From assembly GCA_964248365.1 (NCBI GenBank), contig CAXTYC010000037.1, positions 1 through 49,825 of the forward strand: a stretch of 49,825 bases of DNA, written 5' to 3'. The notes beneath the pieces were generated by a model, which searched no databases, was not told where the DNA came from, and saw nothing but the letters and a program-made list of their open reading frames with translations. The position numbers and the translations under genes were made by a program. Each line of letters starts with the position of its first letter. Position 1 is the first letter of the stretch. Below are positions 5,071-37,159 of the stretch, in pieces. Source of the stretch: an uncultured Chroococcidiopsis sp. (GTDB lineage Bacteria > Cyanobacteriota > Cyanobacteriia > Cyanobacteriales > Chroococcidiopsidaceae).

Positions 5071-6056
5071 GTAAGGATTCAGGTCAGGGGTATTGACAAG
5101 TGTGACATCTGAGGCGGAATATCACAATTATGGAAAAAGACCTGCCTCTGAAAGTAGACCGTGAAACTCTTCTCCAGTTGGCTGCCGAACAACTGGTGGA
5201 CATCATTGCCGAGCAGGCGATCGCTATAGATAAACTAAACAAGAAAATTTTAGAATTAGAGCAAGAAGTACAAAAACTCAAGGTTAGTAGAGATTTAGAT
5301 AGTTCTACATCATCGAAGCCGCCATCTGGGGATATCCTAAAAAAATCAGAAAATCAAGAAGAAGTAGGGGATGGGAACAGCGAGACTCCAAAACGGAAGC
5401 CAGGAGGACAACCAGGACATCCAGGTAAAACTAGAAAGGGGTTTGGTCGAGTAGATAGATTTGAGATTTTACGCCCCCAATTGTGTCGTTGCTGTGGTCA
5501 GACGGACTTTGTTTCAGAACCGATAAAAATCGAAACACAGCAAGTAGCGCAGCTGGCAGAGCGACCAATAGAAATAGTTGAATATCATCGACACACATGC
5601 ATTTGCTCTCGGTGTGGTGAAGCACAAACAGCAGACTGGTCGCCAGATATAGTCCCAGGACAAGATATAGGAATCAAACTGCAAGCTTTTTTGGGATGGA
5701 TAAATAATTATGGACATTTACCCTATGAAAAACAACAAGAACTGTTGTGGGAACTGGGTCAGATAGAAATCGGGGTGGGAACCCTAGTAACTACGAATCA
5801 AAGAATAGATGCTGCTGTTGATAAAAGCGTTAGTGAACTGAAAGATTGGATAGAGCAAACACAGCCAAATATTCATTCGGATGAGACACCTTGGGTTGTG
5901 AAGGGCGTGAAGGAATGGTTGTGGATTTTTGCGAATACAGACTTTGGTCTGTTTCATGCCGCAGATACTCGCAAAGAGTGCACAATTAGAAACCATCCTT
6001 GGTTTGAGCTACAGTGGTGTACTTAGCTCAGACGATTATTGCGTTTATAACGGCTA
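5071..6056 (+). mobile_element. IS66-family element, truncated
   Basis: Left end GTAAGGATTCAGG. TnpC motifs SSKPPSGD, PGGQPGHPG, zinc finger and HSDETPW. Frameshift near 5975; homology ends at the MITE-A copy. Confidence 0.88.
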
Positions 6057-6162
6057 AGTACACTCGTCATAAAAAAATGCGCGAACCGTCAACATAGATA
6101 ACCCTTGCTGCCGAAAAGAAACGCCAACACACGGTTCGCACATTTTTTTCAGACGACCTACT
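6057..6162 (-). mobile_element. MITE family A, copy 2
   Basis: Reverse complement of copy 1 with B-type arms on both sides; TA on both flanks. Confidence 0.9.
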
Positions 6163-6195
6163 TATTGCAGTCTGAGGTAGTTCATCCCTTGCTCC

Positions 6196-11091: not shown

Positions 11092-11219
11092 CGGGGTGAC
11101 AGAGAGCCTACAATGTAGACTGGATCAGAGTCATAGCACGTAGACCCTGCTGAAAATAGGGTAGTTTATTCGGCTTAGTTCGCATTAACTCAATAGCCAA
11201 ATCCGCCCATTGCTCCATA

Positions 11220-11324
11220 AGTAGGTCGTCTGAAATAAACAGCGAACCGTGTGTTGGCGTTTCTTTTCGGCAGCAAGGGTTATCTATGTTGACGGTTCGC
11301 GCATTTTTTTATGACGAGTGTACT
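11220..11324 (+). mobile_element. MITE family A, copy 3
   Basis: Near-identical to copy 1; TA flanks; sits at the break point of the IS701 transposase. Confidence 0.9.
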
Positions 11325-11326
11325 TA

Positions 11327-11783
11327 CCACAATTCCATTTTCAGTTTTTCCCAGGTTTCCTATATACTGTCGTTTCACATAATCTGTTTTGTCTCCTTTC
11401 TTTTTATCTCCTGTTTCATCAATAATTAAAATAATTGGTCGCTCTTTTAGCACTTGTAAAATTAGTTCTAATCGCAAAGCTCTTAACCGTTCTATTTCCC
11501 AAGGTGATGTAGTTAAGAAATGATGTAGGGATTGATGGTTATCTAATCCTACAATTTTTGCTATTTCTGGTAGGGTTTTACGTTTTAATTGGGAAATACA
11601 TCCTATATGTAGGTACTTAAATGCCTCAAAGCTCCTAACATCTGAAAACAGGTTTTTATACCACCTGCAATATTCGTCCACGAATTTGACTGTTGGTACG
11701 GGTGGACGAGGCTCTACCATGCTCTGTGTCTTCGTTCTAGAGTTTGCCCGTTATTATACCACTGCCAGAGTGACAAAATAGGG
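11327..11783 (-). mobile_element. IS701-family fragment (left end and N-terminal transposase)
   Basis: LIIDETGDKKKG..TDYVKRQYIGNLGKTENGIV; end CCCTATTTTGTCACTCTG on the minus strand. Confidence 0.88.
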
Positions 11784-11787
11784 TTAA

Positions 11788-12007
11788 CCGGATCGTTAAA
11801 GCTGCTGCATTGCGAGTGCTTGGGCTAGAACCAGAAGTAGCTGCATCAGTATCACCTCATTGGTTACGTCATGCTCATGCAAGTCATACAATGGATCGTG
11901 GCGCTCTAGTTCACAAGCGTTAAGGACACCTTGGGTCACGCTAATATTGCTACCACTGAGTATTACCTTCATGCGCGACCAAAAAATAGTTTTAGTTCAT
12001 ATATTAG
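11788..12007 (+). pseudogene. Tyrosine recombinase/integrase C-terminal remnant
   Basis: VSPHWLRHAHASH.MDRGA...DTLGHANIATTEYYLHARP readable across frameshifts. Confidence 0.8.
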
Positions 12008-12038
12008 TCAAATTGCTTTAGTATCTCTTAAAGCCTCT

Positions 12039-12149
12039 GTTCCAATTGTCATCTAGCCCGAAGGTTGAATACTACCTGGTTGGGACACTAGATTTGATAG
12101 ACCTACAAATAAGTTCTAATCCTCATCCAGCCCGAAGGCTGAATGCAAC
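12039..12149 (-). CRISPR. Orphan CRISPR-like mini-array (two 37-bp repeats, one 37-bp spacer)
   Basis: Repeats 12039-12075 and 12113-12149 are 30/37 identical. The minus-strand repeat GTTGCATTCAGCCTTCGGGCTGGATGAGGATTAGAAC has a CAGCC-TTCG-GGCTG hairpin and an ATTGAAAC-like end. No cas genes in the window. Confidence 0.72.
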
Positions 12150-12300
12150 CAAATCTTGCTGTAGCGATCCAAACTTGCGTAAATATGACTAAAGAACTAA
12201 AATTGACTCGAATTAAGGGTTTTGCGGTTAGGTAATCTCTGCGGTGTATTACTTTTCTGTGATTGTCCAACATAGTGAACGAGACTTTTTTTTGATGATA

Positions 12301-12405
12301 AGTACACTCGTCATAAAAAAATGCGCGAACCGTCAACATAGATAACCTTTGCTGCCGAAAAGAAACGCCAACACACGGTTCGCTGTTTATTTCAGACGAC
12401 CTACT
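12301..12405 (-). mobile_element. MITE family A, copy 4
   Basis: Reverse complement of copy 3 with one substitution; TA flanks. Confidence 0.9.
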
Positions 12406-12690
12406 TATTGGGTGCATCCTTTCTGTTCCAGTTTTTCGTCTAAACTCTAGTTTAGGGCTTACGCACTGTAAAAAAACTAAAGTCTGCTTCAACGCCCATT
12501 ACGTTTTTGTGTGCTGTTGGTGTAATCAGCGTCACTTTTATAGCAGTAGACAGCGCAATGCCTACAGTGAAACTGCTGAACTAGGCATTGGTATCATCGT
12601 TAAGATTGGGTAATTTTACTGTAGTTCACAAATTGACGATTAGGTAAAAACTTAATAGACAAAATAAAGGACTTTATAAAGTTTGAGTCG

Positions 12691-12981
12691 ATGCCTTTCC
12701 ATCAGGATTATCTTGGTATTGAACAACCAGCTGTGGGTCAATTAATTCGGGAGATCCGGCAAACCCTTAAGCTGACACAAGAGAGGTTTGCGGCGCAACT
12801 AGGTGTCACGTTTCCAACGATCAATCGTTGGGAAAACGGACACGCGACTCCTTCTCCTTTGGCACTTAAGCAAATTGACACTCTGCTAAACCAATTGTCT
12901 GATTCACCCGATGTCAGCTTACGTAAACGCACTCAGACAATTCAAGAAAAATACTTTCCGACAAAGGCTCCCAAAGCATGA
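12691..12981 (+). CDS. XRE-family HTH regulator
   Basis: IREIRQTLKLTQERFAAQLGVTFPTINRWENG; ATGA overlap with the next gene. Confidence 0.9.
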   Translation: MPFHQDYLGIEQPAVGQLIREIRQTLKLTQERFAAQLGVTFPTINRWENGHATPSPLALKQIDTLLNQLSDSPDVSLRKRTQTIQEKYFPTKAPKA

Positions 12982-15275
12982 AGGCAGAGTCACACAAGGT
13001 AAAGGCTGAAAACCTCTTTGTTGGTGGCGGCGAGATAGGTGTATTAGTAAGATCGCACGATTGGTCGCAAACGCCGCTAGGGGCTGTCGAAACCTGGTCG
13101 GAAAGCCTAAAAACGGCTGTGCAGATCCTGTTAACAGAACTTGAGCGCGTAAATCCGCCAGAAAAGACTCAGCTAGAAGCCAATCTGCCGCCGTCGCGCC
13201 CATCAACAGATGCCTTGCGTCAAGCTGCCCAAGCTGATGCGTTTCGAGTCAAGCTCACCAATGCGCTACGCCCGCTGACTGACGCTAATCAGATTCAGGC
13301 GATTGCTGCCCGCATACTGGGTGAGTCTTTAAACGCAAGCCGCGTTATTTATATTGAAGTGTTACCAGGCGAAAAGCAGGTGATCGTTCACAAAAACTAC
13401 ACGAACGGCGTTGCCTGTTTGAGCGGGCTGTACCATCTGGAAGACTTTGGGCGCAACCTGATGGACGATCATCGTGCGGGGCGAACGTTGATCGTTCCCG
13501 ATGTGGCAAACTACTCTAAATACACAGCCAGCGACAAGGCAAGGTATCGTTCGCTCGATATTGCCGCACATATTGATGTGCCGCTGATCAAGAACGAACA
13601 ATTTGTTGCGTTGCTGGCGGTGCATCAGGCAAACCCTCATGGGTGGACCCAAGAAGAGGTGAGACGAGTCGAGGAAACGGCAGAGCAGACGTGGGCAGCC
13701 GTCGAACGCGCAAAGGCCCAATCCGCTTTGCGTCAGAGCGAGGCGCAGTTTCGCACTCTGATTAGTGCTAGTTCTAATGTGCTGTATCGCATGAGTGCTG
13801 ATTGGAGCAAGATGTACGAGCTTCAGGGCAGCGATTTCATCGCAGACACATCCGAGCCAATCTTTGACTGGATGCAAAAATATATTCACCCAGACGACCA
13901 AACTCGCGTATTGGAGGCAATTGAGGTAGCCATCCAGAACAAGTGTTTGTTCGAGCTAGAACATCGCGTTCGTCAAGTTGATGGCACACTGGGCTGGACT
14001 TACTCACGCGCTGTGCCTTTACTCGATAGTGCTGGTGAAATTATTGAATGGTTTGGCGAGGCAAGTGATATTAGCGATCGCAAGCGCATCGAGCAAGAGC
14101 GCGAACAACTGCTGCACCACGAACAAGCCGCACGGGAAGCTGCCGAATCTGCCAACCGAATCAAAGATGAGTTTCTTGCCGTACTGTCCCATGAATTGCG
14201 ATCGCCCCTCAATCCCATTTTGGGCTGGACGCGCTTACTACAAAACGGCAAACTGAGCGAAGCCCGTAAAGCCGAAGCCTTGAAAACTATCGAGCGCAAT
14301 GTCAAACTACAGACGCAACTAATCGAAGACTTGCTCGACATCTCCCGCATCATGCAAGGCAAACTAAGCTTAACAGTTGCTCCGGTCAGTTTGACCTTTG
14401 TAGTTTCTGCCGCCGTTGATACAGTGCGTTTGGCAGCAGAAGCAAAAAATATCAGCATCGCCCTCGATCTTGACTTTGAGATCGCTGCGGTTTCTGGCGA
14501 TGCAGCCCGCTTGCAACAAGTAATGTGGAATTTGCTTACCAATGCGGTTAAGTTTACACCCAATAGTGGACAAGTAACCGTTGAACTGCGCTCTTTCGAT
14601 GGGCTAGCTCAGATTCGGGTAATCGACACTGGTAAGGGCATCAATCCGCAGTTTTTGCCCCATGTATTTGAGTATTTTCGCCAAGAAGACAGTTCAACGA
14701 CACGCAAATTTGGCGGGTTGGGATTGGGACTAGCGATCGTGCGGCAAATTGTCGAAATGCACGGGGGTAAGGTAAAGGCAGAAAGCCTAGGTGAGAATCA
14801 AGGCGCAACCTTCATCGTGCAATTGCCCCTGATGCAACAGGCAAACAAGATTGCATCCGAGCCAATCCACACACCCATAGAAGCCTCAGTGCCTTTAGAG
14901 GGCGTTCAAATTTTGCTGGTTGATGATCAGCCAGATACCCGCGAGTTTCAGTCATTTGTGCTAGAACAGAGCGGTGCAAATGTAACAGCCGTCGCTTCTG
15001 GCGTTGAAGCTTTGCAAGCTCTAGATTTGTTTACTTTTGACGTGCTAGTGAGTGACATAGGCATGGCACAGATGGACGGCTATATGCTAATGCAGCAGAT
15101 TCGTGATCGCCCAACCAATCAAGGAGGAAGTATTCGAGCGATCGCACTGACCGCTTATGCCGCAGAATTTGACCAACAAAGAGCACTTCAGGTAGGTTTT
15201 CAAACTCACATTACAAAACCTATAGAGCCAGAGGCGTTAGTAGGGGCAATTGTAAACTTGTTAGATGGCAACTAA
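12978..15275 (+). CDS. Hybrid sensor histidine kinase (GAF-PAS-HisKA-HATPase-REC)
   Basis: LSHELRSPL H-box, NAVKFT, DTGKGI, GGLGLGL; receiver VDD...DIGM...K; PAS motif IHPDD. Confidence 0.95.
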   Translation: MKAESHKVKAENLFVGGGEIGVLVRSHDWSQTPLGAVETWSESLKTAVQILLTELERVNPPEKTQLEANLPPSRPSTDALRQAAQADAFRVKLTNALRPLTDANQIQAIAARILGESLNASRVIYIEVLPGEKQVIVHKNYTNGVACLSGLYHLEDFGRNLMDDHRAGRTLIVPDVANYSKYTASDKARYRSLDIAAHIDVPLIKNEQFVALLAVHQANPHGWTQEEVRRVEETAEQTWAAVERAKAQSALRQSEAQFRTLISASSNVLYRMSADWSKMYELQGSDFIADTSEPIFDWMQKYIHPDDQTRVLEAIEVAIQNKCLFELEHRVRQVDGTLGWTYSRAVPLLDSAGEIIEWFGEASDISDRKRIEQEREQLLHHEQAAREAAESANRIKDEFLAVLSHELRSPLNPILGWTRLLQNGKLSEARKAEALKTIERNVKLQTQLIEDLLDISRIMQGKLSLTVAPVSLTFVVSAAVDTVRLAAEAKNISIALDLDFEIAAVSGDAARLQQVMWNLLTNAVKFTPNSGQVTVELRSFDGLAQIRVIDTGKGINPQFLPHVFEYFRQEDSSTTRKFGGLGLGLAIVRQIVEMHGGKVKAESLGENQGATFIVQLPLMQQANKIASEPIHTPIEASVPLEGVQILLVDDQPDTREFQSFVLEQSGANVTAVASGVEALQALDLFTFDVLVSDIGMAQMDGYMLMQQIRDRPTNQGGSIRAIALTAYAAEFDQQRALQVGFQTHITKPIEPEALVGAIVNLLDGN

Positions 15276-20466: not shown

Positions 20467-22407
20467 GTTAGGGTCGAGGGAGGTTATTAGACCTCGCCCC
20501 TCCCTGTTAGATCCGGACGTGCGAGATTTCCCCGCATCCGGCTCCCGACGTTCTTAGTCGTGACTTTTGCTCATGTGGTGGTAATCGTGGCAGCTTTCGT
20601 GGACGGCTGAAAGGTTTTTAGGCTTCCAGTTGTTATGGTTACCATCTACATGATGTAGGTGTACCCTTTCGTCACTTAGCGTTTTTAATCCACAATATCC
20701 ACAGGTATGGTTTTGCCTTTTCAGGACTTGTGAGGTTAATCCGTCATAGAGTTTGCTGTTACGCGCACTCCAGTAGGTTAAGTCGCCATCGTAGGGCGAT
20801 TTGTCTTCCTTGACATTGACGAATCTATTTTCGGAGTAAGGAACGTATGGGAACGCTTTATTCAGTAGTATCTTACTGGTGTGGCGGTTCTGCTTCTTTT
20901 CCTTATTGAATACCTTGAACGCTCTTTTCTGAATGAAATACAGCGAATTTCTCGCTCCATCCATCTTGCAGTAGCGGTGGTAATTTCTCCAACCTCTTAC
21001 TATGGGGGCTAATTTCATAGCCTTGATCTTTGCACCATAATTCGAGTTCTTGACGATTTCTTTTACCTTCTGACGGAAAGCCTTGAAGTTGTCCACTGAT
21101 GGAACACATCTAAACTTTCCGTTGGTTTGCACTTTGAAATGCCACCCAAGGAAATCAAATCCATCTGTCGCTGCGGTTAGCTTTGTTTTCTTTTCACTGA
21201 CATTCATTCCTCTGTGGGCGAGAAACTGGCTGATTTTGTCAAGTATTGCCTTTGCGTCATCTTGGGGTCTTAGTATGAGTCGGGTAGGGCGGGGGCATTG
21301 CTGCCCCTTTCCCCCCTAGAAACCGGACTTACAAGTTTCCAAGTATCCGGCTTGAGCAATCTACAAGGCTATTTCTTCCCATGAGCCTGCTGGTGGCAAT
21401 AAAGGTGCAATAGGCGAAGGTTATTGTAGGTGTCCTTACCACCTTCGCTTTTTGGTTTGACATGATGTAGATGTAGTTCTTCCCCGTTGTATAGGGATTC
21501 ACCACACGTCGGGCATTGGTGGTTTTGATTTTTGGCTATCGTTTGTCGGGATTTGTTTCTCAGGTTTTTCACCTTCTTCATTTCCCTGTCGCTCCAATAG
21601 TCCCTTAAGTCGGGGTCGTCGGAAGAGGATGAGCCTTTAACTAGGGTGTGCCGTTCGATGTCGAACCAACTGAATTTCAGTATATGCGCTCCCAGGCTTT
21701 TATCACCAAATACCCATTTGTCAGGACGGTGAAGATTTAAACTGCCGAAATAGCGTTTTTGTCTCCACTTCCAACCTTTTTTGGGGTGCATTCTCCTGGT
21801 GTGTCGTCTTTCTGTGATAAACATCCACCGATCTAGACCAGAGAAGGTTTCTTTGGAAACTCCAGTACGGAAATAGTTAGCCCATCCCCGAATTACCGAA
21901 TTTAGTTTTCCGAGTAGTTCTGGTAGTCTGAATCTGACAGGAGATAGCCAAATATCCCTAAGTTTTGCCCGTACCTTCTGCACTGACTTGGTACTAGGTT
22001 TTATGAGTAGTTTCCAACCTGTAGCAGTATTGGAGTCTCGATAGTGCCTAATATTAAAACCGAGGAAATCAAAGCCAGCCGTAAGATGTTTTATGCTGGT
22101 TTTTTCAGAGGAAATATTAAGTCCCCTTTGTGCCAGCCATCCTTTTATGACTTCTACGCATATGAGTGCGTCTTCTTTGGTTTCGCAGAACACGCAAAAG
22201 TCGTGGGCGTAGCGCACAACTTGGCGTTTGCCGATAGACTGTCCTCGCAAGTCGTATGTGACTCCAAGGGCTTGTTCCATTCCGTGTAGTGCAATATTAG
22301 CCAAGAGGGGGCTGATATTGCCGCCTTGTGGCGTACCGCTGTCGGTTTCGTGAAAAACCCCTTTATCCATTACTCCTGCTTTGAGCCATTGGTGAATCAA
22401 CTTCCTA

Positions 22408-22511
22408 AGTAGGTCGTCTGAAATAAACAGCGAACCGTGTGTTGGCGGATCTGATCAGCAGCAAGGGTTATCTATGTTGACGGTTCGCGCATTTTTTTAT
22501 GACTTTGTACT
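22408..22511 (+). mobile_element. MITE family A, copy 5
   Basis: TA duplication at 22406-22407 and 22512-22513; excision restores the RT frame. Confidence 0.92.
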
Positions 22512-22958
22512 TAGCTGGGAAGTTGCCAATGCTTTTCATCAGGTAGTCATGGTCGATATTATCAAAACACCCTTGAATGTCAGCGTCTATCACCCATTTT
22601 TTCCGCTTATTAGGGCGGCATATACCATAGATTTTCTCTATGGCATCATGGGCGCTTCTGCCAGGACGAAAACCGTAGCTCGTCCCTTCAAAAAGGGCTG
22701 ACCAGCTTGGCTCCAAAGCATTCTTAACGATTGCCTGTAGGCATCTATCAATTATGCTAGGTATTCCGAGAAGTCGTTTCTTACCGTTTGGCTTAGGAAT
22801 TTCGACACGTTTTGATGGTAGTGGTTTCCAGGGAATAAATTTTCCCAGGGCATCTACTAACACACCTCTTGCTTCCGGTGTAAGTACCAGAAGTTTGTCC
22901 ACCCCAGGCGTGTGCTTGCCAGAGTTCTGCTGTGTTACCCTTCTTACTGCTATCAGTA

Positions 22959-23062
22959 TATTGGAGTCATCCTAAAACTAAGCCCAGCTAGATAAACAAC
23001 AAGCGTATACATAGGAATAAACAGCTCCGCCAAGAGGGCTGGGCTTAATTTACGGATAGGTC
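22959..23062 (-). mobile_element. MITE family C, short copy (net 104-bp insertion)
   Basis: TATTGGAGT repeated at 22959 and 23063; arms TAAGCCCAGC/GCTGGGCTTA; removal restores the RT frame. Confidence 0.85.
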
Positions 23063-23475
23063 TATTGGAGTAGCAACGCATTAGCAGCTTTTGCAGGCTG
23101 CGAACTTTTTTCCAGTTTGACTCACGGGTAGCTCTGAAGATTCTTTGTCTTAGATTTCTCACTACACGGTTGGAGTCGCGCCAGTTGACGCGGCTCCATT
23201 CGGTAGTTTCCTTGGTTACGTTTGCAGTTGCCTGCATCTAACTTTTCCTTTTGGTTTCGATTTCTTTACAAAAGAATTTCAGAAAGATCACCTGCTGCAC
23301 GTCAGCACCCTTTCAGGTTAGGCATCTACCTTATCCGTCAGGTTATGTTTTTTTTCCCTTTGCCTTTCGGCGTGACGGCATTCGCTTCTTGCAGCTTCCT
23401 TATCCCGCTAGGGAATTCGGGTTGCCTTGCGGCTTCCTTACTGAGTGCAAATGCATTCAGTCCCTATCGGGGTTA

Positions 23476-23579
23476 TATGGAATCCTAAAAATAATGAAAC
23501 AGCCTTATTTAAAAATCTCTCGTACACAGCAGGTATTCGCACTTGAAGGCTGTTTCATTATTTTGAGGAAACGTTATTA
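23476..23579. mobile_element. MITE family D in the inner intron RNA (net 104 bp)
   Basis: Perfect 19-bp IR AAAATAATGAAACAGCCTT/AAGGCTGTTTCATTATTTT with TTA repeated at both ends. Confidence 0.75.
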
Positions 23580-25397
23580 CTTCGTTCCGCATGGATTGAG
23601 ATCCGATCTGGGTTGGGTTCCTTTCTTTACTCCGGGGCGAGGTGTCCGCACATTCATGTAGTAAAGCATGGATGCCAGTTGCCCATCCTGCCGTATAAGT
23701 CACTTCCGACAGTTGGATGTCACGAAGCTTAAAAAAGGTTCACTGTACGTTAACCCGTCCACTTCTTCCCCTCGCCTCCCTTTCAAGATGTGACTACCTA
23801 CCGGGGTTCGGCTTTTCCTCTAGCTTTGAGACAACCGGATTACTCCTATTGCCCCTTTGGATGGGGACGGCTTTGTTGGACACTTAGCCGGAGAGTTGTT
23901 CCTATGAGGCTCTCACTCAAACCATGCGACATCGAGTCGCACCTACCATGTCATCCGCATAGCGGATTGTGGGTTCTACTAATTTCCCATCTCTGTATCT
24001 ATGGATACTTTCGATGCCATTTAATGCAATGTTAGCTAACAAGGGACTCACCACGCCCCCTTGAGGTGTACCCACATCGGGGTATTCACAGGTTGACTCC
24101 TGATTTGAGACAGCGGAAAATCCCTGTCTTGATGCCCCTTGGGACGATGAGTCGTTCCATTATGGATGTGTGGCTTATCCTATCGAAGCATTTTTCGATG
24201 TCCAGTTCGAGGACTCGTTTTCCTTTTCCGCCCCTATCGGAGCGTAGGTTTAATTGCAGGAGTTTTTGAGCGTCATGCGTTGAACGTCCTGGTCTAAACC
24301 CATAGCTACGTGCCTGAAAGGTTGCTTCGTGTGCTGGTTCCATTGCGAATTTTACGAGGCAAAGACACGCTCTATCCGCGATGGTTGGGACTTTTAGGAT
24401 TCGGGTTTTCCCGTCCTTTTTTGGGATTGGGATTTCCCTTAACTTCTGGTGTTGCCAGTTGTTATAGTGGTTCCTGAGCCAAAGACTCAGGTTTAGCCTC
24501 TCATAGAAGGTTAGGGAGGCTTTGCCATCTACTCCTGCTGTCCGTTTTCCAGCGTTTAGCTGCGTTACTTGACGTACTGCCAACATTCTCGCCGCATAGG
24601 ATTTCAGTATCAGCTTTTGAAGGGACGCGCGCTTTGCGCTTGTCACCTGCTCGAATAGCTTTCCACACTCGCACTTGTAGGCGGAATAGACTGCGCTGGA
24701 GTTTCTTCCAGTCTGTCTTTTTCCAAAGTTCACTAGCTTTTGGGCTGTATCTAACCATGCTCTGTTTGTGTTTGTGTGTTCGCAAGCGCCTTGCAGCAAT
24801 TACGCTGCATCCTACCCACATCGAGGATTTCCGCTGCTCGTCCAGCCGAAGAGGTTCGACCTTTCCCAAGACCTCTAATGTGTTTTTATTCGTTCGCTCG
24901 GTCAGATTGTTACGTTCTTTTAGGTGTAGCCAGTTCAACTATTGGGTTCCCTTGACTCTTGCCGCTTACAGTAAAATTTTGCGGCGGGAATGTTTCTCCT
25001 TTTTCTTGGGAGTTTTTCCCCAATGGGGTCGGGGGTTTTATGTTGCGCCCCGCTGCGAAGTAAGTTGCTTTTTTTTAGGCTCTTTTTCACCGTGAGAACT
25101 CCCCATTAGCATGAGAGATTTGGGGGAGAATAATTCTTCCCCAAACTCTCTCGCCAGTGTCACCCCGCCACGGATGTCTGATTGCGCCCTGTTCCCAGCT
25201 TCGCTCTGCCGATTTCCCTTGCGGTACTCCAAGTCGGTTCGGCGTGGGCAGGTAGGGATTTACGCCTGAGTCTGGCGAGTGGGGTTTTCACCCACATACA
25301 ACCAAGAGTTCAACCTTTAGTGACAGTAATCTGCTGTCGGGTTGGGTAGCTTATGCTTCGGACTGATTACCGAGATTCGGCTACCAACGAATCGCAA

Positions 25398-25940: not shown

Positions 25941-26416
25941 TTTTCTCGCCTCATGTGCGAATAATTGAAATAAAGCAGGTGCTTTCTGTCGCGCTACAAA
26001 GGTATCAAGCGGGTGACGTGCAAGGCTGAGCGATTGCTTGATTCTGAAACAGGTTGTGGGTAGCCCTCGAAAAGCTGGCTGCGTAGGAATTAGAGTTATT
26101 AGGTACTTTCATTTCCAAGCAGCTATTACCTGCCGCCTATCCGCTGCGTAAGCGTTGCTTAAACGTTGTTATCGCAATTCCTGAAATACCAGCGTTTTTA
26201 CAACAGGACGATAATTACCTAGCTTTGGGGTTGCTTTCAATTGAGTGCCAGCAATTGTTTCCCTCACTTTTTGTAGTTCTGCTGCCAGCAGCTTTTGGTA
26301 TTGCTCGTCGTCTGGTTGGCGATCGCCTGCACTCATCAGTCTTCCCCCTTCAATCTGCCTGTTGTTGCACCAGGGCTGAAGGCTGCTTGTGACAAGGAAT
26401 GTACAAATAGATTCGG

Positions 26417-27184
26417 CTATGTCTCCCCTTCTACAACCTCATCGAGTAGTGCTTTCAACACCAGATCATATGCTTCATCTTCTAATACTGGATATGAGCG
26501 CAAGTATGAAGCGGTAGACCACCGTTGCATTTTGTCGTAGTCGAAACCAACACATTTCAAAATTTTCTTGACGCGGTTGCGATCGCGCGTTGATTTGGGA
26601 TTTAGCCCAGCATCCGCAATCAGTTGGGTGAGACTTCGCCCTTTTGTACTATTGATTTCTCTTCCGGCAGAATCGAGGAAACGATCACGGTACACAAGCT
26701 CTTTTGGTGGGGGCGCTTCACCGCGCAGCCACCGCAACAATGCGGCACTGGTCGAAAGTTGAATAGCATACCCCGTATCCTGATAGTGCTGTTTGGCTCG
26801 GATTAGCTCAAGTTCCAGCTTCATTCGCTCTATTTCTGCGTTTTGGGCAGGAATGGCTTGTTTGATTACTTGTTTGGCTTGGGAAAAGGCTTGTACTAGG
26901 GCAACCTTGCAGTCCACCACTTGAGGAGTATTTCGGGAAAAGCTCATTAGCAGAGTAGATTGGTCTTCAGTTAGATAAGCCACGCGCTCAGGACGACCGC
27001 CTTTACTGCCTTTGAGGGGTTTCTCCGTTTCAAACCGCACAACCCCAAATGCTGCTTCTATGCGATGAAGGTAATTATCTAAGGTTTCAAGCAGACTTTT
27101 GTGTGTGATCCCTAAATCTTGAGCAATCAAGCGCGAATCAACAACTAGAACGTTATCACGTGAGGTAACTGTTAAATTAGACAT
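26417..27184 (-). CDS. Rha-family phage regulatory protein
   Basis: VVDSRLIA..LG..HKSLL, GGRP...AYLTEDQSTLLM and K.ALVQAF. Confidence 0.85.
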   Translation of the reverse strand: MSNLTVTSRDNVLVVDSRLIAQDLGITHKSLLETLDNYLHRIEAAFGVVRFETEKPLKGSKGGRPERVAYLTEDQSTLLMSFSRNTPQVVDCKVALVQAFSQAKQVIKQAIPAQNAEIERMKLELELIRAKQHYQDTGYAIQLSTSAALLRWLRGEAPPPKELVYRDRFLDSAGREINSTKGRSLTQLIADAGLNPKSTRDRNRVKKILKCVGFDYDKMQRWSTASYLRSYPVLEDEAYDLVLKALLDEVVEGET

Positions 27185-27278
27185 TACTGTGTACCTACTA
27201 ATACTTTGGGTTGCAGCACCTCTCTAGTAGTAAGCCTCGAAAACTGATACTAGGGAGGTTTGATTTCTTAACTTTCTT

Positions 27279-27509
27279 TCAATTGGTGTGATAAGCAGTA
27301 ATTACAATTTTTGTGTCAGGGCTATAAATCACCTCTAACCGACGATAAGTAGGATGTGTCCACCAGGTTTTGATCCGATTTCCTTGTGCTGGAGCAGTAC
27401 CAATCTTGGTATAACCTGTATCAAGCAATAGCTGCTCAAAAGTGAGTGTTGGCAATGTTTTAGCTGTAATTTTGCCAATTCCATCGAATTGATGTTTATC
27501 AAGGGTCAT
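27279..27509 (-). CDS. Small hypothetical protein
   Basis: 76 aa, overlaps the upstream gene, ends VITAYH. Confidence 0.65.
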   Translation of the reverse strand: MTLDKHQFDGIGKITAKTLPTLTFEQLLLDTGYTKIGTAPAQGNRIKTWWTHPTYRRLEVIYSPDTKIVITAYHTN

Positions 27510-27738
27510 AACTACCTTGATAGGTACTCCAAATGCGGAAGCCTGGTAATACTAAGGCAATACCAGCAGGACTATGGATAGTACCTGGATAGCCTTCTTC
27601 TGGGTCACTACCGCCAATTCTAATTTTGACCAAACCAAGCCAAATATATAACCCTGGAATCAAAGTATCCATGCTGTACGCGATCGCTCTCACGCCTGCT
27701 GGGGAATAATCAGCTTTATTCTTTGGATTTGCAGTCAT
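27499..27738 (-). CDS. Small hypothetical protein
   Basis: 79 aa with AAGGAA RBS. Confidence 0.65.
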   Translation of the reverse strand: MTANPKNKADYSPAGVRAIAYSMDTLIPGLYIWLGLVKIRIGGSDPEEGYPGTIHSPAGIALVLPGFRIWSTYQGSYDP

Positions 27739-27835
27739 AGTATTTCCTTTATTCCAACTTGTAATTAATGTCTAGTTTGTTCCTTAAACCGAAGCTGCTT
27801 GGAAGAAAATAGCTTGAGGATAAAAGAAAACGATT

Positions 27836-28240
27836 TTAAGCAGACTCTGGTACTTCAGGAACAATAATTAGTACACAAAAGGATTTAGGATTATCGATTG
27901 GTTTAGACCCAGCGTTTTTATTTGTATATTTTTCCTTGGCTAATCCTGTTGTAGTTAATACGTTTTCCTCATCACCTGGTTCGTAATCACGGGTATAGTC
28001 AATTAAAGTTATTGGCGTAATCTCCCCATCCAAATTTAGACCTAATTTATTTAAAGCGTTGCAAAGCTTATTTAATGAGTCCCCATCCAAACGCGGCATA
28101 GTATCGCTCTTTCGCAAGTTTGAAATAGCATTTGCACTTATTCCCATTTCCTTAGCCAGGTCAACAGCTTTGATATGGTATCTCGCCATGACCTCGCGTA
28201 ATCGCCATCTAATCAAAGTCTGATTCATAGAACTCAACAT
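27836..28240 (-). CDS. XRE/Cro-C1-type HTH repressor
   Basis: WRLREVMA...IKAVDLAKEMGISANAISNLR...L.KLCNAL. Confidence 0.85.
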   Translation of the reverse strand: MLSSMNQTLIRWRLREVMARYHIKAVDLAKEMGISANAISNLRKSDTMPRLDGDSLNKLCNALNKLGLNLDGEITPITLIDYTRDYEPGDEENVLTTTGLAKEKYTNKNAGSKPIDNPKSFCVLIIVPEVPESA

Positions 28241-28312
28241 CTCAAATTTACTTCTGTTTGAAATTTAAGACAAATATAAAGGTCTTGCATGTAATAATAA
28301 CACTGAAATTTT

Positions 28313-28361
28313 ATAAATCAAAGTCTAGACTATTGATAAATCCAAGTCTAACCTGTATATT
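28313..28361 (+). promoter_or_regulatory. Sigma70-type promoter overlapped by direct-repeat operator candidates
   Basis: TTGATA (28333)-17 nt-TATATT (28356); ATAAATC[A/C]AAGTCTA occurs twice in tandem; divergent from the repressor. Confidence 0.55.
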
Positions 28362-28834
28362 AGTAATATAGGCAAAGGGAAACAGAGACAGCCCCCACCA
28401 ACAAACGGAATAAAAAGTCTCAATCTGTAATAGCTACAGACGCAATATAAAAGTTAAACAACTCTTCTGGGGTTGTTTACCACAAGCCAAGACTTTGAAA
28501 ACTAAATAACCCCCCCTGCTTCCAGAAACTAACGTGGCAGCCCTATTTTAGGTGCGTTGAACGAGGAGCAATGACAGGGAATTTAAGATCCGAAACTCAC
28601 ACATCCCCAGCTAGTGCTTTGCTTTTCTTAACTGGGGTAACACTTCAATAATCCAAAAACTACAAAGCCTGAGCGTTCAACTTGTCCAGAGCGATCGCTA
28701 CAGGCTTTGTTTCCTATCAATAGGTAATTCAAATGGTAACGTAACAAAAAGTACAATCACAAGCTCAAGTTCCCCAAACCTGGAACAACCCCACAACACA
28801 CGCTCGTGTTGGCGACTATATCCGTGAACCGTTT

Positions 28835-29407
28835 ATGCCGATAATAGTGGTAGTAGACAAAGATTTACTACCAGATGGCAGGGTTTGGTTGCTAGTAAAA
28901 CCATTATCTGGTGGGGCAGAGGAAGAATGGATTATCGACCCAGAGCCAGCCGCAGAGTCATCAGCACCAACCACCCACCTGCAAGACACACCAGTAGAGC
29001 AGCCAGTTTTAGATTTCCCTAGCTGTAAATGGCAGCCAGCGTGGTTAGGGCAGCAAGAGTACGAAAGAGGGACATGGTGGGGTAAACATGATGCAAATAC
29101 TCGAAGGAAGCCGTTGTATACAAAAGCTAGTTGCCCACATTCAACAGGGTATCTAGATGCTTATAACCAATTCACGCAGATTAACCAAACGTCCAAACAG
29201 CAGCCAGAAACAAAAAAACCGACCCAGTGGCGAGTTGTCTATGCTCCTGATTGGGACTGGGACTGGTATATAACTTGGGTAGAAGGCGAGTACATCGGTA
29301 AGTATTGCTCTTGCGAAGAGGCTGAATCTGCTGCTCAAAAGTACATTGCGGCTGAGCAAGCACGGCTAGAACACAGAGAATTGATGTTAGCAGCTTACCC
29401 CTCTTAA
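28835..29407 (+). CDS. Hypothetical protein; stop codon supplied by the MITE
   Basis: 190-aa ORF running into the 173-bp MITE. Confidence 0.6.
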   Translation: MPIIVVVDKDLLPDGRVWLLVKPLSGGAEEEWIIDPEPAAESSAPTTHLQDTPVEQPVLDFPSCKWQPAWLGQQEYERGTWWGKHDANTRRKPLYTKASCPHSTGYLDAYNQFTQINQTSKQQPETKKPTQWRVVYAPDWDWDWYITWVEGEYIGKYCSCEEAESAAQKYIAAEQARLEHRELMLAAYPS

Positions 29408-29571
29408 ATCACTTTGGCGATAGTAAATTCTGGAACCTGCTTTAGATAAAGATTTTGATAAAGCTCCTACAAATGAAGGAAAGTGTTAGGAAATAAAGAA
29501 TAAAAGCTTTACACAGCAGGCGTTTTCAAGTTTTAGTAAGATTTTTAATTGCCTAGAGTGATATGAGAGGG
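29399..29571. mobile_element. 173-bp MITE with IS701-like ends, copy 2
   Basis: CCCTCT...AGAGGG ends and a 4-bp TTAC duplication; diverged reverse-complement homolog of 9008-9180. Confidence 0.82.
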
Positions 29572-29667
29572 TTACGGTGAAAAACGATAGGCAACCACAA
29601 CGCATTACACAAAAGGGACGCTGCTATCACTACAAAGCAGCGCCCTTATTTACTTGAGGGGTTTATC

Positions 29668-29988
29668 ATGAGCGCAATTGCAGAACTTAATGACCGATTT
29701 CGCAAGGGTGATATGAGCTTGGGGCAGTACAACATGACAACTGGAGTGAACGCACTAGAACCAGAGAAAAGGCAGCAACTGATTCAACTGGTGCGAGACT
29801 TTGACTCTTTCAACCCTGATAATGACCCATACGAGGAAAGGGACTTTGGCAAAGTTGCACTAGACGATGAAAACTATTTTTTCAAGATCGACTATTACGA
29901 CCCTACACTGAATCATCACTCACTCGACCCAGCTAGTGTATGTGCAACGCGGCGGGTTATGACGTTGATGTGTAGCGACGAGTATTAA
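29668..29988 (+). CDS. DUF3768-family protein
   Basis: IAELNDRFR, FNPDNDPYEERDFG, FKIDYYD and RVMTLM..EY. Confidence 0.85.
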   Translation: MSAIAELNDRFRKGDMSLGQYNMTTGVNALEPEKRQQLIQLVRDFDSFNPDNDPYEERDFGKVALDDENYFFKIDYYDPTLNHHSLDPASVCATRRVMTLMCSDEY

Positions 29989-30066
29989 ATCGTTTTTTTG
30001 TACCAACAGGACGTTTGCACGATGACAGGCAAGCGTCCTTTTTCAATTAAAGACTTTAACCAAATA

Positions 30067-30450
30067 ATGCCACTAATTACCATCACATTCAATTACCCTC
30101 ATGCGCCTCTACCCAAATTCAAGTTTGGAGATCGAGTTGCCCTTAGCGATGACTGTCCCCCTTGTGACTGGTTGACAGGGAAAGTCGTAGGTTTGACCTT
30201 AGACGAAAGTTATGATCCTACCTGGTACTACAGCGTCAAGCTTGATGCGCCTTCTGGACTAACAGAAGAGTATCTAGAGTGTGCTCTTGTACCAGAAAAA
30301 GAAATCCCAGTCCTACAAGCAGGGTGGAAATCCGTTGTTTCCCTAACCCAAAAGGACGAATTCAAACCAAGCCCGTTTGACAACTGTGATTACGATATAC
30401 ATACCGCCGATGCGGTATGGGCTAAAGAGACATTGGGTGAGAGCTACTGA
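30067..30450 (+). CDS. Hypothetical protein (SH3/KOW-like; DUF1392-like)
   Basis: PKFKFGDRV...GKVVGL...WYYSV. Confidence 0.5.
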   Translation: MPLITITFNYPHAPLPKFKFGDRVALSDDCPPCDWLTGKVVGLTLDESYDPTWYYSVKLDAPSGLTEEYLECALVPEKEIPVLQAGWKSVVSLTQKDEFKPSPFDNCDYDIHTADAVWAKETLGESY

Positions 30451-30526
30451 TTTAAATAAAGGGCTTTGGTGACACATCCTTAGCCTAACAAAGTTTTTGC
30501 AAGCAAATACCCAATGGAGGTTATTA

Positions 30527-31310
30527 ATGAGTATAAATGCAATTCCAGTTGCCAGAGGTTGCGCTCCTCGCAAGTCAGGTGGAGTTTATTTCGAGTGCGG
30601 GTTTTCCCCATCCGGTCAGCCAGTCGAGCATTTCCTATGCGATCCACCTGTATTAGTGGATGATTGGCATCTGTCACCTGTTGGGGTGCAGTTGATTGAA
30701 CGCAATGGAGTCACCCACATTGTTGACTGGGTAGGGTCGATGCACTACCCGAATGTAGCTGATTTTATTGAAGAAGTACGCCGATTTGGTTTGTCGCGGC
30801 GCTTATCAAGCAAGCTGGACTTTTCACGCATTACTCCCCAAACACGGATTTTATTGGTGCATCAACGTGCTTACGTTGACAATTTTGAAGAATATCAAAC
30901 TTGGTCTTGTCCCAAGCATCTACCAGGTCATGCTGTTGATGTGTTGCCTCACACCCGTTTTCGTAACGTGTGAAACCTTTTTGTCCTCTCGAATAGTCCA
31001 GTATACACACAGTTATGTTAATGAAGGTTTCACCCATTTGTCAGAAAAACGCTATCATGAACCCCCGCACGATCGCGGATGTGTGCAGGGGTCTGGTGGC
31101 GTGATGTTGAGGGGGGAATTGAACCCAAGACGAGGCGCTTTGATGGTGAGTATGACGAACGTGACGTAGAACGGGTAATGCCTTCCTTCTCGTATCTGGC
31201 TCGACGCAAACCAGATATCGTCAAACCCACGTACAAGAATGCAATTTTTGCCTCTTTCCCTTGTAGCCGCTGGCGTTGTGGTTAAGGGCAACCATGAGAA
31301 AAATTTAGAA
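30527..31310 (+). pseudogene. Hypothetical gene interrupted by MITE-B
   Basis: ORF pieces 30497-30973 and 31079-31285 flank the MITE. Confidence 0.6.
30952..31052 (-). mobile_element. MITE family B, copy 2
   Basis: Reverse complement of 37160-37260 with one substitution. Confidence 0.88.
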
Positions 31311-31351
31311 AAAGCAAAGGCTGCGCTCATTACAGTTGAGGAGGTTGAAAG

Positions 31352-32106
31352 ATGAGTAACACTCAACTAAAACTGCTACCGGATAAACCTGTTGCGCCGA
31401 AGTTTGCTTATGTTAGTCTATCAGAATTACCCCAAATTCTTCCAGGCAGCTACCCAGACAAAGCTTTTATTCAGTCAGTCGAGAAGTTTGGTGTTTTGCA
31501 GCCCATAGGACTAATTGAATCGGATCAAGGCTACCTGGTGGCATTTGGTAGACAGCGGATTCTAGCCACCAGAAAACTTGGTTTAATTTCGATTCCGGCA
31601 CAAATTTATCCGGCTCATTGGACACCTGGGGAAATCTTAACACTAGTAGAGAATCAGCTCTGCGCCTACAAGCCACACCATCCGAAATCTGTGCCGCTGT
31701 TGGAATTACTAAAGCCGAACTATACAAAGCCCTCAAGCTGATTAATGGTTTAATTCCAGAACTACGACTTGCACTTTCACAAGGCAGGATTTCATCTAGT
31801 TCTGCCCGTAATGCTATCAAGCTGGCACAAAAGCAGCAACAAAGATTGGCACAGCTATCACTGATTCGAGCAAAAGATGTTGACCAGCAGCTGAGGGTAA
31901 ATACATCAAGTAGAGTCAGTGATTTGCCAAAAACACTATTTGAGGAAGTGCCACAGGTTTGTTGGCGGACTAAAGCTCTTCAACTGATTGAGCAGCTGCT
32001 CATAACAGTGCCACACGACTATCATGCCCAGGTCGAGCAGTTAGCCCACGCCATTAAGGGAAAGCAAAATAAGGCTCATTCATTCAAGGTTGTCAAAGCA
32101 GTTTAG
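31352..32106 (+). pseudogene. ParB/Spo0J-like protein, frameshifted
   Basis: SVEKFGVLQPI...LVAFGRQR..A..LG...IPA...LVEN, then an HTH in another frame (PSEICAAVGITK). Confidence 0.75.
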
Positions 32107-32472
32107 TTTATGTTATGGAGTAATACTTTGAAATCAATTAGTAGCAAACAATCTGCATAACTGAATTCCCTTAAGTTTGACCTACAACAAAAGCAAGAAA
32201 ATGTCTCGTTGGCGATCGCCGACTTTAATGCCAAAGTACAAGAGTTGTTAAAGAACTTGTTGCAGATAGCATTGATGAGTACAACTTGACCGTTCTTGCA
32301 GCGCAATACGAGGTAGACCAAACGCTAGAGGAGATCCAAACCTACGCTCGACGAAAGTAGCGATAGTTGGCAAAAGAGCAATCGCGGCACATCGTTTAAT
32401 GAGTGGATTGATCAATGGGATATCAGCTTAGAAGAGATCGATATAGATTCTCCAGATAAAGCCGATGTACCT

Positions 32473-32577
32473 ACATTTTCCGTCCTAAAAAACAAGACAG
32501 CCTTCAAAATCGATCCCCCATCCTGGCAACGAGTAACCCTAAAACAAGGCTGTCTTGTTTTTTAGAGGTACACCGGA
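32473..32577. mobile_element. MITE related to family D
   Basis: Perfect 20-bp IR CTAAAAAACAAGACAGCCTT/AAGGCTGTCTTGTTTTTTAG; TACCT repeated at 32468 and 32578. Confidence 0.75.
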
Positions 32578-33902
32578 TACCTGATTTTGAAGCAGTGGGG
32601 CAGCTTGAGGAATTAGTTGAAGAACCAGACTAAGCCTCCTGAATATTTCATTAGGTACGCAATAATGCCTGTTTTAATGGTGAATAACCAATAAAGCAGG
32701 CTAACTTTTTAAGTGTTACAATTGTTTGCATAAGTTATGCAACCCTTAGAATATTTGCTAAATTTTCTAATTACAGAGATTGGTATAGAGGCTACTTTCC
32801 AAGTAGTATACGAAGCTGTTAGTCAAGATAGCTCATCTGAGCAAGCCGACCAACTATACTCAGCTTTTCGCGTTGTAATAGATGTGCAAAAACAACGACA
32901 CTTGCTATAGCGATCATGTGGCGTGAAACTCAGAAGGATTGGACAAAGTAATTCTTCAGTTAGGTTAGAGGATGTTTCTACTGCTGCCCCGAAACAAATA
33001 TTCTTTTTCCAATTAGCTAAACTCTACCCAACATTTGGTGGCGTTCGAGTACAAGTGTTGGGCATTGGTGGGAATTGTTGTTCACCCATCACCAGAAAAA
33101 TATGGTATCCATTAAAGACAAGATTGCCAAAATGTTGTTACTGGCAAATGGAGAATTAGTCCGCCATCGTCATGCAGTTGAGGCAGGGCTATTTGTAGAA
33201 GATAAAAACACCTCGCATTTGAGCACAAAGAAAAAGATTAAGCAAATCTAAATGATTAATACCTAAAAGCCAATGAGCAGGTAATAGTGAAAAGCTTAAA
33301 CTAACTAATACTAGGTAGTATAAAGGTAGTTGAAGCTTAACACTACTTTTGTTGATAGTTAGTAGAGGTATTCAAAGTAGATGCCTCTGCTAACGAGAAA
33401 AATATTTTGCATTTGTTCATTGTGCATTACTCTTAGTTTCAGTAGTAACCCTTAATCCAAGGTGACTAATGATATTAATGTCAACAGAATTCACAACGGC
33501 GACAAAAGAAATAGTACAGCCAAAAACTCTTGAACAGCCCGCGTACTACAAGGCGCATTACCAGCGCATTTACTTTAAAGCTAAGCTCGCAAGTTAAGCC
33601 TACTTTACTCAAACATCTTAGTTAGATCAGCACACAAATAAGGCAAATTCAAGGCGATTCATTAACTATTCACTAATTGCTGAAATTCTGGATTAGGGTA
33701 AGTTCTGTCTTTTAAGGACAAAATGATGTTTTAGCGAACGGGGAATTAGTATGCCATTGCCGTACAGTAAAAATAGAAATTTTTGAAATCCGATCTGAAG
33801 CAAAATCCTAGTCTGAAAAAGCAAAGGCAATACCCAACAAAGCAAGTAACCGTAGCAAACGAACATTTCATTACTTCAAATTTGACTACCAGGAAATCAA
33901 CC

Positions 33903-35693: not shown

Positions 35694-35994
35694 ATGAAAG
35701 TTTACGAAGTAATAAAAACACTAAAAAGTTCTGGTTGGCGTTTGGAACGGACGACGGGCAGCCACCGCCAATTCAAACACCCTGTTATGCCACAGCTAGT
35801 TACTTTACCTGGAAAACTTTCGCGCATAAGTAGGTCGTCTGAAAAAAATGTGCGAACCGTGTGTTGGCGGATCTGTTATTGCCGCTAGGGTTATCTATGT
35901 TGACGGTTCGCTGTTTATTTATGACGAGTGTACTTACATTCCCATTGGTACACTTCATAAAATTAAGAAAATCGCGTGTCTAAGGATTAAATAA
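35694..35994 (+). pseudogene. hicA: HicA toxin gene interrupted by MITE-A
   Basis: GW...RTTGSHRQFKHP...VTLPG before the MITE and IPIGTLHKI after it. Exact frame is not restored by TA excision. No hicB adjacent. Confidence 0.82.
35829..35934 (+). mobile_element. MITE family A, copy 6
   Basis: TA flanks; B-type left arm and A-type right arm. Confidence 0.9.
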
Positions 35995-36514: not shown

Positions 36515-37051
36515 CCACTAGTAGCAATTGTGATCGCGCTGTCACTACAAAACACCCAATAACTAGCACTTCACTTTACTTTTGGATAGGCTCTGAAGTG
36601 GAACAAGAATTAAAGCCTGATAAAATTCCCTGTATTTGGCAATGCTGTGGGGAATATGAAATTATGGCTTGTAGTTTAACTGATGCCATTGCTTTAGCTG
36701 AAGGAAAAGGGGTTTAAATAAGTAAAAATCACTAGAGGCAATCGTACAAGTTTAAAAGTGAGTTGCAAGTAATGTAGACTTTAAAAGCAAAACATCAAGA
36801 GTAGGTGACAGCTTTTACCAAAATTAGGAGAATAAGTAATTACCAGCCTTTTCAAGAGTATTTGTCCGCATTGGTAGTGATTTGACAATGCGATCGCTCA
36901 CTTGCCTGAACTTTTTATAACTCTGTGAGAATTTTTAAAATCCTCGCTCCTCTTACCAAAAATGCGATTGCTCTCATCCAAGACTGAATAAATTATGAAG
37001 CAAAAAACAGTTGCCGCTTTGTTGCAAGCTTACAGGCGATTGCAACAGATA

Positions 37052-37157
37052 AGTAGGTCGTCTGAAATAAACAGCGAACCGTGTGTTGGCGGATCTGTTA
37101 TTGCCGCTAGGGTTATCTATGTTGACGGTTCGCACATTTTTTTATGACGAGTGTACT
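37052..37157 (+). mobile_element. MITE family A, copy 7
   Basis: TA flanks; shares the TA at 37158-37159 with MITE-B. Confidence 0.9.
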
Positions 37158-37159
37158 TA

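Follow-up and report, generated by a model that had tools for sequence, protein, structure and literature searches.

An orphan repeat-spacer-repeat unit of the type I-C CRISPR family in an uncultured Chroococcidiopsis

A contig from an uncultured Chroococcidiopsis sp. carries one repeat-spacer-repeat unit (positions 12039-12149, minus strand) that is a real piece of CRISPR rather than a chance pair of similar sequences, and whose repeat, judged by its sequence, belongs to the type I-C (DR9-like) family. The window, meaning the whole stretch of DNA that was analysed, is this entire 49.8-kb contig, and the genome assembly to which it belongs comprises 5.58 Mb in 102 contigs at 99.97% completeness. 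Because its repeats belong to a Cas-linked family while no cas genes lie near it, the unit is an orphan CRISPR array, a known sort of feature. The original prediction had left open whether it is a mini-array that exploits host Cas proteins or the remnant of a deleted locus, and the second option fits best: the repeat family is I-C, there are no cognate cas genes and no leader, the neighbouring genes are broken and both repeats are off-consensus. We conclude that the unit is probably a decaying orphan fragment of a type I-C array, inert in its present host. The features of the region are as follows.

318-425, 6055-6165, 11217-11329, 12296-12408, 22406-22513, 35826-35937 and 37049-37159: copies of a MITE, the one at 12296 inverted relative to the one at 11217
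11280-11787, minus strand: IS701-family transposase fragment and IS end, truncating the integrase and itself cut by the MITE copy at 11217-11329
11788-12007, plus strand: remnant of a tyrosine recombinase (C-terminal part, frameshifted) that stops about 30 bp short of R1
12039-12075, minus strand: R1, the distal repeat, with seven differences from R2, a broken hairpin and an intact 3' end
12076-12112, minus strand: the single 37-nt spacer, with no target found
12113-12149, minus strand: R2, the proximal type I-C repeat, with its 9-bp hairpin and 11-nt 3' tail intact
12150-12295, no strand: upstream DNA, with no I-C leader homology and no promoter-like site towards the repeats
12296-12408, minus strand: MITE-like insertion of about 110 bp, one of seven copies on the contig, with a probable TA target duplication
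12409-12690, no strand: remaining upstream non-coding DNA, reaching the divergent HTH gene and joined to 12150-12292 in MITE-free alleles
12691-15275, plus strand: XRE-type HTH gene and GAF/PAS hybrid histidine kinase, neighbours outside the CRISPR unit

The repeats and their family

The 37-37-37 geometry that had been predicted is exact, and R1 and R2 are identical at 30 of 37 positions. An ungapped scan of the 5.58-Mb genome found no further copy of either repeat at up to 11 mismatches, and no third repeat lies within 12150-12295. As a control for chance, 100 block-shuffled windows searched at 15 lags yielded no comparable repeat pair; 131 regions of the real genome pass the same loose pair test, the R1/R2 pair being the sole one on the contig. 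The hairpin that had been proposed for the minus strand is present in only one of the two repeats: R2 forms a hairpin of 9 bp that leaves 11 bases unpaired behind it (-14.5 kcal/mol, z -3.5, 0 of 200 shuffles as good), whereas R1 has no fold (-2.4 kcal/mol, z +1.0).

The closest array to R2, at three mismatches, consists of 28 identical repeats beside cas genes in a cyanobacterial locus (L029). R2 has four mismatches to the repeat of a second cyanobacterial locus (L063), whose operon contains seven genes above NCBIfam cut-offs: cas3, I-C cas5c, cas8c, cas7, cas4, cas1c and cas2. The CRISPR origin is thereby upheld. Every cas-linked array of this repeat family that was examined is I-C. Among 4227 Rfam families, the minus strand of R2 matched only CRISPR-DR9 (RF01322), at 20.3 bits (E 0.31), below the gathering score of 45. 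When the exact degenerate repeat pattern was sought across 185,579 genomes, six loci were found, and in three distinct loci among them the repeats follow ORFs that look by eye like cas8c/cas7/cas4/cas1. Allowing two mismatches, the pattern occurred in 2 of 400 other genomes of the phylum, and a looser version in 16 of 400 genomes of the order and in 0 of 27 of the host's family. The repeat had no matches in IMG/VR or the JGI metagenomes and only chance-level matches in phages, and among plasmids the search returned one real array. In the I-C loci compared, leader and cas2 are found towards what would be higher coordinates here, so the minus-strand orientation that had been assigned is right.

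Compared with type I-C arrays carrying DR9-like repeats (L029, L030 and L063), the unit has the same 37-nt repeat, the same 9-bp hairpin with a 4-nt loop, the same 11-nt 3' tail, and a like spacer length (37 nt, in a family range of 31-43) and orientation. It differs in having two repeats only, both off-consensus, in lacking a leader as well as I-C cas genes in the contig or the genome, and in an Rfam score that does not reach the gathering threshold.

Both repeats carry changes at conserved positions. At positions 8 and 33, which are otherwise invariant columns, R2 has letters absent from all 15 family repeats; the change at position 8 leaves a G-U pair in the stem, and position 33 falls in the future 5' handle. 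R1 has four letters never seen in the 15 family repeats, plus two rare ones, and its hairpin is broken, so the more degenerate repeat is indeed the distal one. Counting private changes, R2 has one and R1 six, a difference that is not significant (two-sided binomial test, approximately 0.13). Two features of the repeats go against reading the unit as a remnant. R2 is less changed than R1 and keeps its hairpin, which is the pattern expected from selection on R2. In addition, R1 is unlike the 3'-truncated terminal repeats of two other loci (L006 and L129), and its status as an old trailer repeat is therefore unsupported.

Host Cas content and upstream DNA

As predicted, no cas genes accompany the unit (none among the 56 window ORFs scanned). 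The host genome has two cas1 genes, one in a type I-D operon and one in a type I-B (Myxan) operon, both operons with cas6, and it contains three other kinds of repeat, in arrays or array ends; a short array of the third kind lies on another host contig (C99:1350-1606). Searches of the host with tblastn found no I-C Cas5, Cas7 or Cas8c at E<=1, and for I-C Cas3 only a 48-residue match at E 0.42. PF05107 had no match in the host genome, although two controls did match; PF09709 likewise had none in 28 family genomes, but no control matched and this result is not counted. At E<=1e-60 an I-C Cas3 matched 39 of 401 genomes from the order, but neither the host nor any of 27 genomes of the same family. 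No complete type I-C system (cas3, cas5c, cas8c and cas7) was thus found in cis or genome-wide.

Type I-C repeats are reported to be cut by Cas5 (PMC10651486). With Cas5c (the I-C repeat cutter), Cas7c, Cas8c and I-C Cas3 all missing, the unit is expected to go unused in this host. The suggestion that it uses host Cas proteins therefore fails for the present host, the repeat being type I-C, the I-C Cascade lacking and the host I-D repeat differing from R2 at 20 of 37 positions. Comparison with host arrays and with repeat databases, which had been proposed as a check, thus places the repeat in the I-C family and far from the I-D repeat of the host.

It is nevertheless conceivable, if quite improbable, that RNA from the unit is processed by the I-D or I-B Cas6 of the host, or that it belongs to a TnpB-derived type V effector encoded elsewhere in the genome. 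The cas6 genes of both operons and five Cas12f1/TnpB-like matches in the host genome speak for this, as does the I-D repeat, whose first four letters and much of whose last nine are common to R2. Against it stand the 20 differing positions, the absence of any of the five TnpB-like matches from the unit's contig, the uniformly I-C character of the cas-linked arrays examined, and the placement of the hairpin: Cas6 acts on repeats with 8 nt between hairpin and repeat end, and the R2 hairpin ends 11 nt before it.

The stretch at 12150-12300 had been described as non-coding and leader-like. It does look non-coding, but it is not an I-C leader: local alignment of the DNA upstream of R2 with eight canonical I-C leaders gave z <=2.3, compared with z 7.5-27.6 for five cyanobacterial I-C leaders among themselves, and from 12296 onwards the sequence is MITE. 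A promoter scan of 11700-12750 found three sites where 2.0 were expected, none of them within 12150-12295. A promoter-like site at 12472-12444 scores 9/12, no better than chance. No terminator was found in the same interval.

The MITE has imperfect terminal repeats and is present in seven copies on the contig and fewer elsewhere. The copy at 12296 lies 146 bp upstream of the unit; four metagenomes contain this allele without it, which means that it moved recently. Among the metagenome runs listed, 19 from 10 studies contain some of 11790-12295, and seven contain half or more of its sequence words; five RNA or presumed-RNA runs contain 4-7% of those words. Four runs (X1, X4, X6 and X7), one each from surface, rock, air and dust studies, were compared in detail. 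The unit is covered in all four at 99-100% identity, and the broken neighbourhood is equally so. X6 shows no differences over 11931-12196 and X7 none in two pieces; X1 shows four over 11860-12292 and X4 six over 11854-12298, these differences being counted over the whole span rather than placed in repeats or spacer, with 40 of 250 variant places listed. The alleles are too close for a selection test. All four read straight from about 12292 to 12406, and it follows that these relatives, too, have no cas genes or further repeats on that side.

The upstream DNA also bears on a further reading, in which an array-targeting Tn7-like transposon with its left end at the TGT at 12160 cut off the distal end of an array. 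Such transposons are reported in cyanobacteria to insert in spacers 43-48 bp from the conserved end of a repeat, often near the last repeats (PMC11837452), and the TGT does stand at the right distance, on the plus strand 47 bp away from where R2 starts. However, the conserved 8-bp end of the family is absent from 12100-12300, no TniQ scores above cut-off in the genome, and there is no convincing partner end, since none of three ACA-plus-duplication candidates is similar. The tns genes (tnsAB-C-D) and the other, upstream half of the array are also missing, and this family is described as carrying no cargo (PMC11837452). We therefore reject a transposon end at 12160 and regard this reading as very improbable.

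The spacer and possible functions of the unit

The absence of a spacer match that had been noted for the window extends to the whole host genome, in which an ungapped scan found none at up to 12 mismatches. PLSDB and INPHARED each gave one chance-level match (E 5-6), the JGI metagenomes none by exact 25-mer, and 28 family genomes only the spacer itself (23-mer with three mismatches). In IMG/VR, a 17-mer search gave three matches that extend to only 21-25 of 37 positions and have no TTC. Against I-C cas loci (237 kb), the best alignment was 24/37, equal to shuffles. Across PLSDB, INPHARED, the JGI metagenomes, IMG/VR and the family genomes, databases that are thin for the host lineage, no mobile-element target with the right PAM was found. 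The proposed search of genome, plasmids and phages thus yielded no target and no supported TTC match, and the suggested roles in inter-element competition or regulation find no backing in these or in the I-C loci.

For comparison with known regulatory units, we used the cas3-cas5 regions of 33 I-C loci, some of which are the same operon. These contain seven distinct single degenerate repeats with the handle kept, between cas3 and cas5; an eighth candidate, located where cas5 of L075 begins, was set aside as a chance hit. Of the seven, six match their own locus over 8-16 positions, about 60-150 bp downstream, with a TTC PAM, which makes TTC the PAM of this I-C subfamily; a TTC PAM is reported in other I-C systems as well (PMC5602111). 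A CreR-like layout, of the autorepression kind, occurs in L065, L073, L079, L080 (= L029), L081 and L082, and L083 has the repeat without a TTC match. With their TTC-PAM promoter matches, such units in several cyanobacterial I-C loci are ready test cases for I-C autoregulation.

The unit might be a Cracr or a delocalised CreR, in which case its crRNA-like product would bring I-C Cascade to a cas promoter by a short match next to the PAM and thereby repress it. Such units do exist in the I-C subfamily, as the six controls show, I-C Cracrs are reported on mobile elements (10.1101/2024.10.29.618823), and since seeds differ between loci an unsampled target is possible. The two-repeat layout with a degenerate distal repeat is also as described for CreR and Cracr units (10.1101/2023.03.10.532045; 10.1101/2024.10.29.618823; 10.1101/2023.03.03.530964). 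Yet the spacer has no TTC-PAM match of at least seven positions in the cas3-cas5 regions of the 33 loci or upstream of cas3 in 31 loci; its best seed match in I-C loci covers eight positions and is flanked by TTT. A nine-position match 88 bp upstream of the L030 cas3 was rejected, its PAM being ATA. In the host genome only two nine-position TTC seed matches occur, within the range of 30 shuffled spacers. The at least nine PAM-proximal matches to a cas or toxin promoter that characterise CreR and Cracr units were not found. In CreR-like units the handle is conserved and the hairpin altered, the opposite of the situation in R2. We consider a regulatory role of this kind improbable.

The main rival to the remnant reading, owing to the intact hairpin of R2, is a mobile-element mini-array or a Racr-like decoy kept for hosts that have I-C: Cas5c of such a host would cut R2, and the RNA would guide Cascade to a rival plasmid or phage, or soak up Cas5 and Cas7. 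An intact proximal hairpin with a degenerate distal repeat is the layout reported for many stand-alone mini-arrays (10.1101/2023.03.03.530964), an I-C Racr is experimentally known (PMC10651486), and the spacer length falls within the family range. Like RacrIC1, the unit has an I-C repeat whose hairpin is intact, and it lies on mobile DNA at a distance from cas genes; however, Racrs are described as solitary transcribed repeats, often beside acr genes (PMC10651486), and the unit has two repeats, one with a hairpin, no promoter above chance and no recognised acr-like neighbour. Further points against this reading are the lack of promoter and terminator, when a solitary I-C repeat in another genome (G646) has an 11/12 promoter and a terminator; the handle mutation, in a column that does not vary among the 15 family repeats; the absence of I-C Cas3 from the 28 genomes of the host family; and the missing protospacer. 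Nor was any repeat found at up to 14 mismatches in 15 integrase-homologue loci, not all of them independent, or in the 8 loci covered out of 15 HTH/kinase-homologue loci, so that neither a conserved integrase-plus-repeat nor an HTH-plus-repeat module is seen. On balance we judge such a function unlikely.

One contig of the rock metagenome (X4) runs in its integrase match to 12002 and then, after unknown letters, into 29 nt of R2-like repeat at 12118. This joint is a weak hint of a sibling element or else chance, such joints often coming from other organisms. A bolder version of the decoy reading would have a plasmid-like element of rock, dust and surface cyanobacteria carry an I-C crRNA-like unit behind its integrase, as a pre-emptive decoy or weapon for the I-C systems of other families; this is rather doubtful, and equally doubtful is that the unit is a member of an integrase-linked family to which the X4 sibling contig and an array on the plasmid pDEIPR01 would point. 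Were the unit expressed and active, RNA-based anti-CRISPRs or inter-plasmid mini-arrays would extend to cyanobacterial I-C, and the element would be armed against a system that its current host lacks.

Origin, neighbourhood and related orphan repeats

Returning to the remnant reading, we infer that a spacer unit of an I-C array arrived in the lineage on mobile DNA from an I-C-bearing cyanobacterium, and that the leader, the cas genes and any further repeats were then lost. What remains would now be gathering point mutations amid an IS-rich stretch of broken genes, probably doing nothing in the present host. Should a read-through RNA meet an I-C Cascade, cleavage of R2 may still be possible and would yield a spacer preceded by a mutated handle and followed by a tail left untrimmed; R1 could presumably not define the other RNA end. 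No parent locus was found in our searches, the deletion itself was not observed, and in literature coverage that mostly excludes subscription journals neither this unit nor any cyanobacterial orphan I-C mini-array was found described. As a remnant, the unit would be of little importance beyond marking a past transfer of I-C DNA into a family that has no I-C in 28 genomes.

The surroundings agree with this origin. The integrase remnant that had been noted beside the unit is what is left of a tyrosine recombinase, frameshifted and truncated. Fragments of IS elements and group II introns are plentiful on the contig, which also carries ParB-like and Rha pieces and by appearance looks like a plasmid or island; its region 26001-33900 has only two short plasmid matches. 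Elsewhere in the window (20554-24938), several broken pieces of group II intron reverse transcriptase occur, one of them interrupted by the MITE.

Leftovers of this kind recur: five further cyanobacterial genomes in which I-C Cas3 found no match (G122, G451, G464, G594 and G630) contain single orphan repeats of the family, which speaks for the remnant reading. Orphan arrays are also reported to be common, and short, on plasmids (PMC9071438), and the unit resembles these in having no cas genes nearby and in its mobile-DNA setting.

Several related loci deserve mention in their own right. Single orphan repeats of the family lie between ordinary genes in six cyanobacterial genomes, five of them without I-C Cas3 (L035, L036, L037, L044, L045 and L046); three of the five Cas3-less ones follow a gene that, by eye, is like one inside the I-C operons L030 and L063. 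Deinococcus proteolyticus pDEIPR01 (L129:8846-11182) has a cas-less array of 18 repeats; a tyrosine integrase precedes it by 70 bp, and no gene up to 10 kb away is annotated as cas. That array is of the same repeat family, position and orientation as the unit, but has 17 identical repeats and, by eye, leader-type motifs, neither of which the unit has; the integrase adjacency of both may be coincidence in a single case. About 500 bp from a relative of the window's HTH gene lies a 37-nt stretch whose end resembles a CRISPR repeat handle (L104:929-965).

The solitary I-C repeat of G646 (L062:7651-7877) has three mismatches to R2 and shares its letter at position 8. Besides its promoter and terminator it has an upstream hairpin, and it stands far from the I-C operon of its genome, an operon with just two repeats and without an internal unit; no target of the solitary unit was found in that operon, and its first eight downstream letters equal those of the L065 unit. 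In another genome, which has a full I-C array on a different contig, three perfect repeats abut an apparent recombinase fragment (L001:1915-2096).
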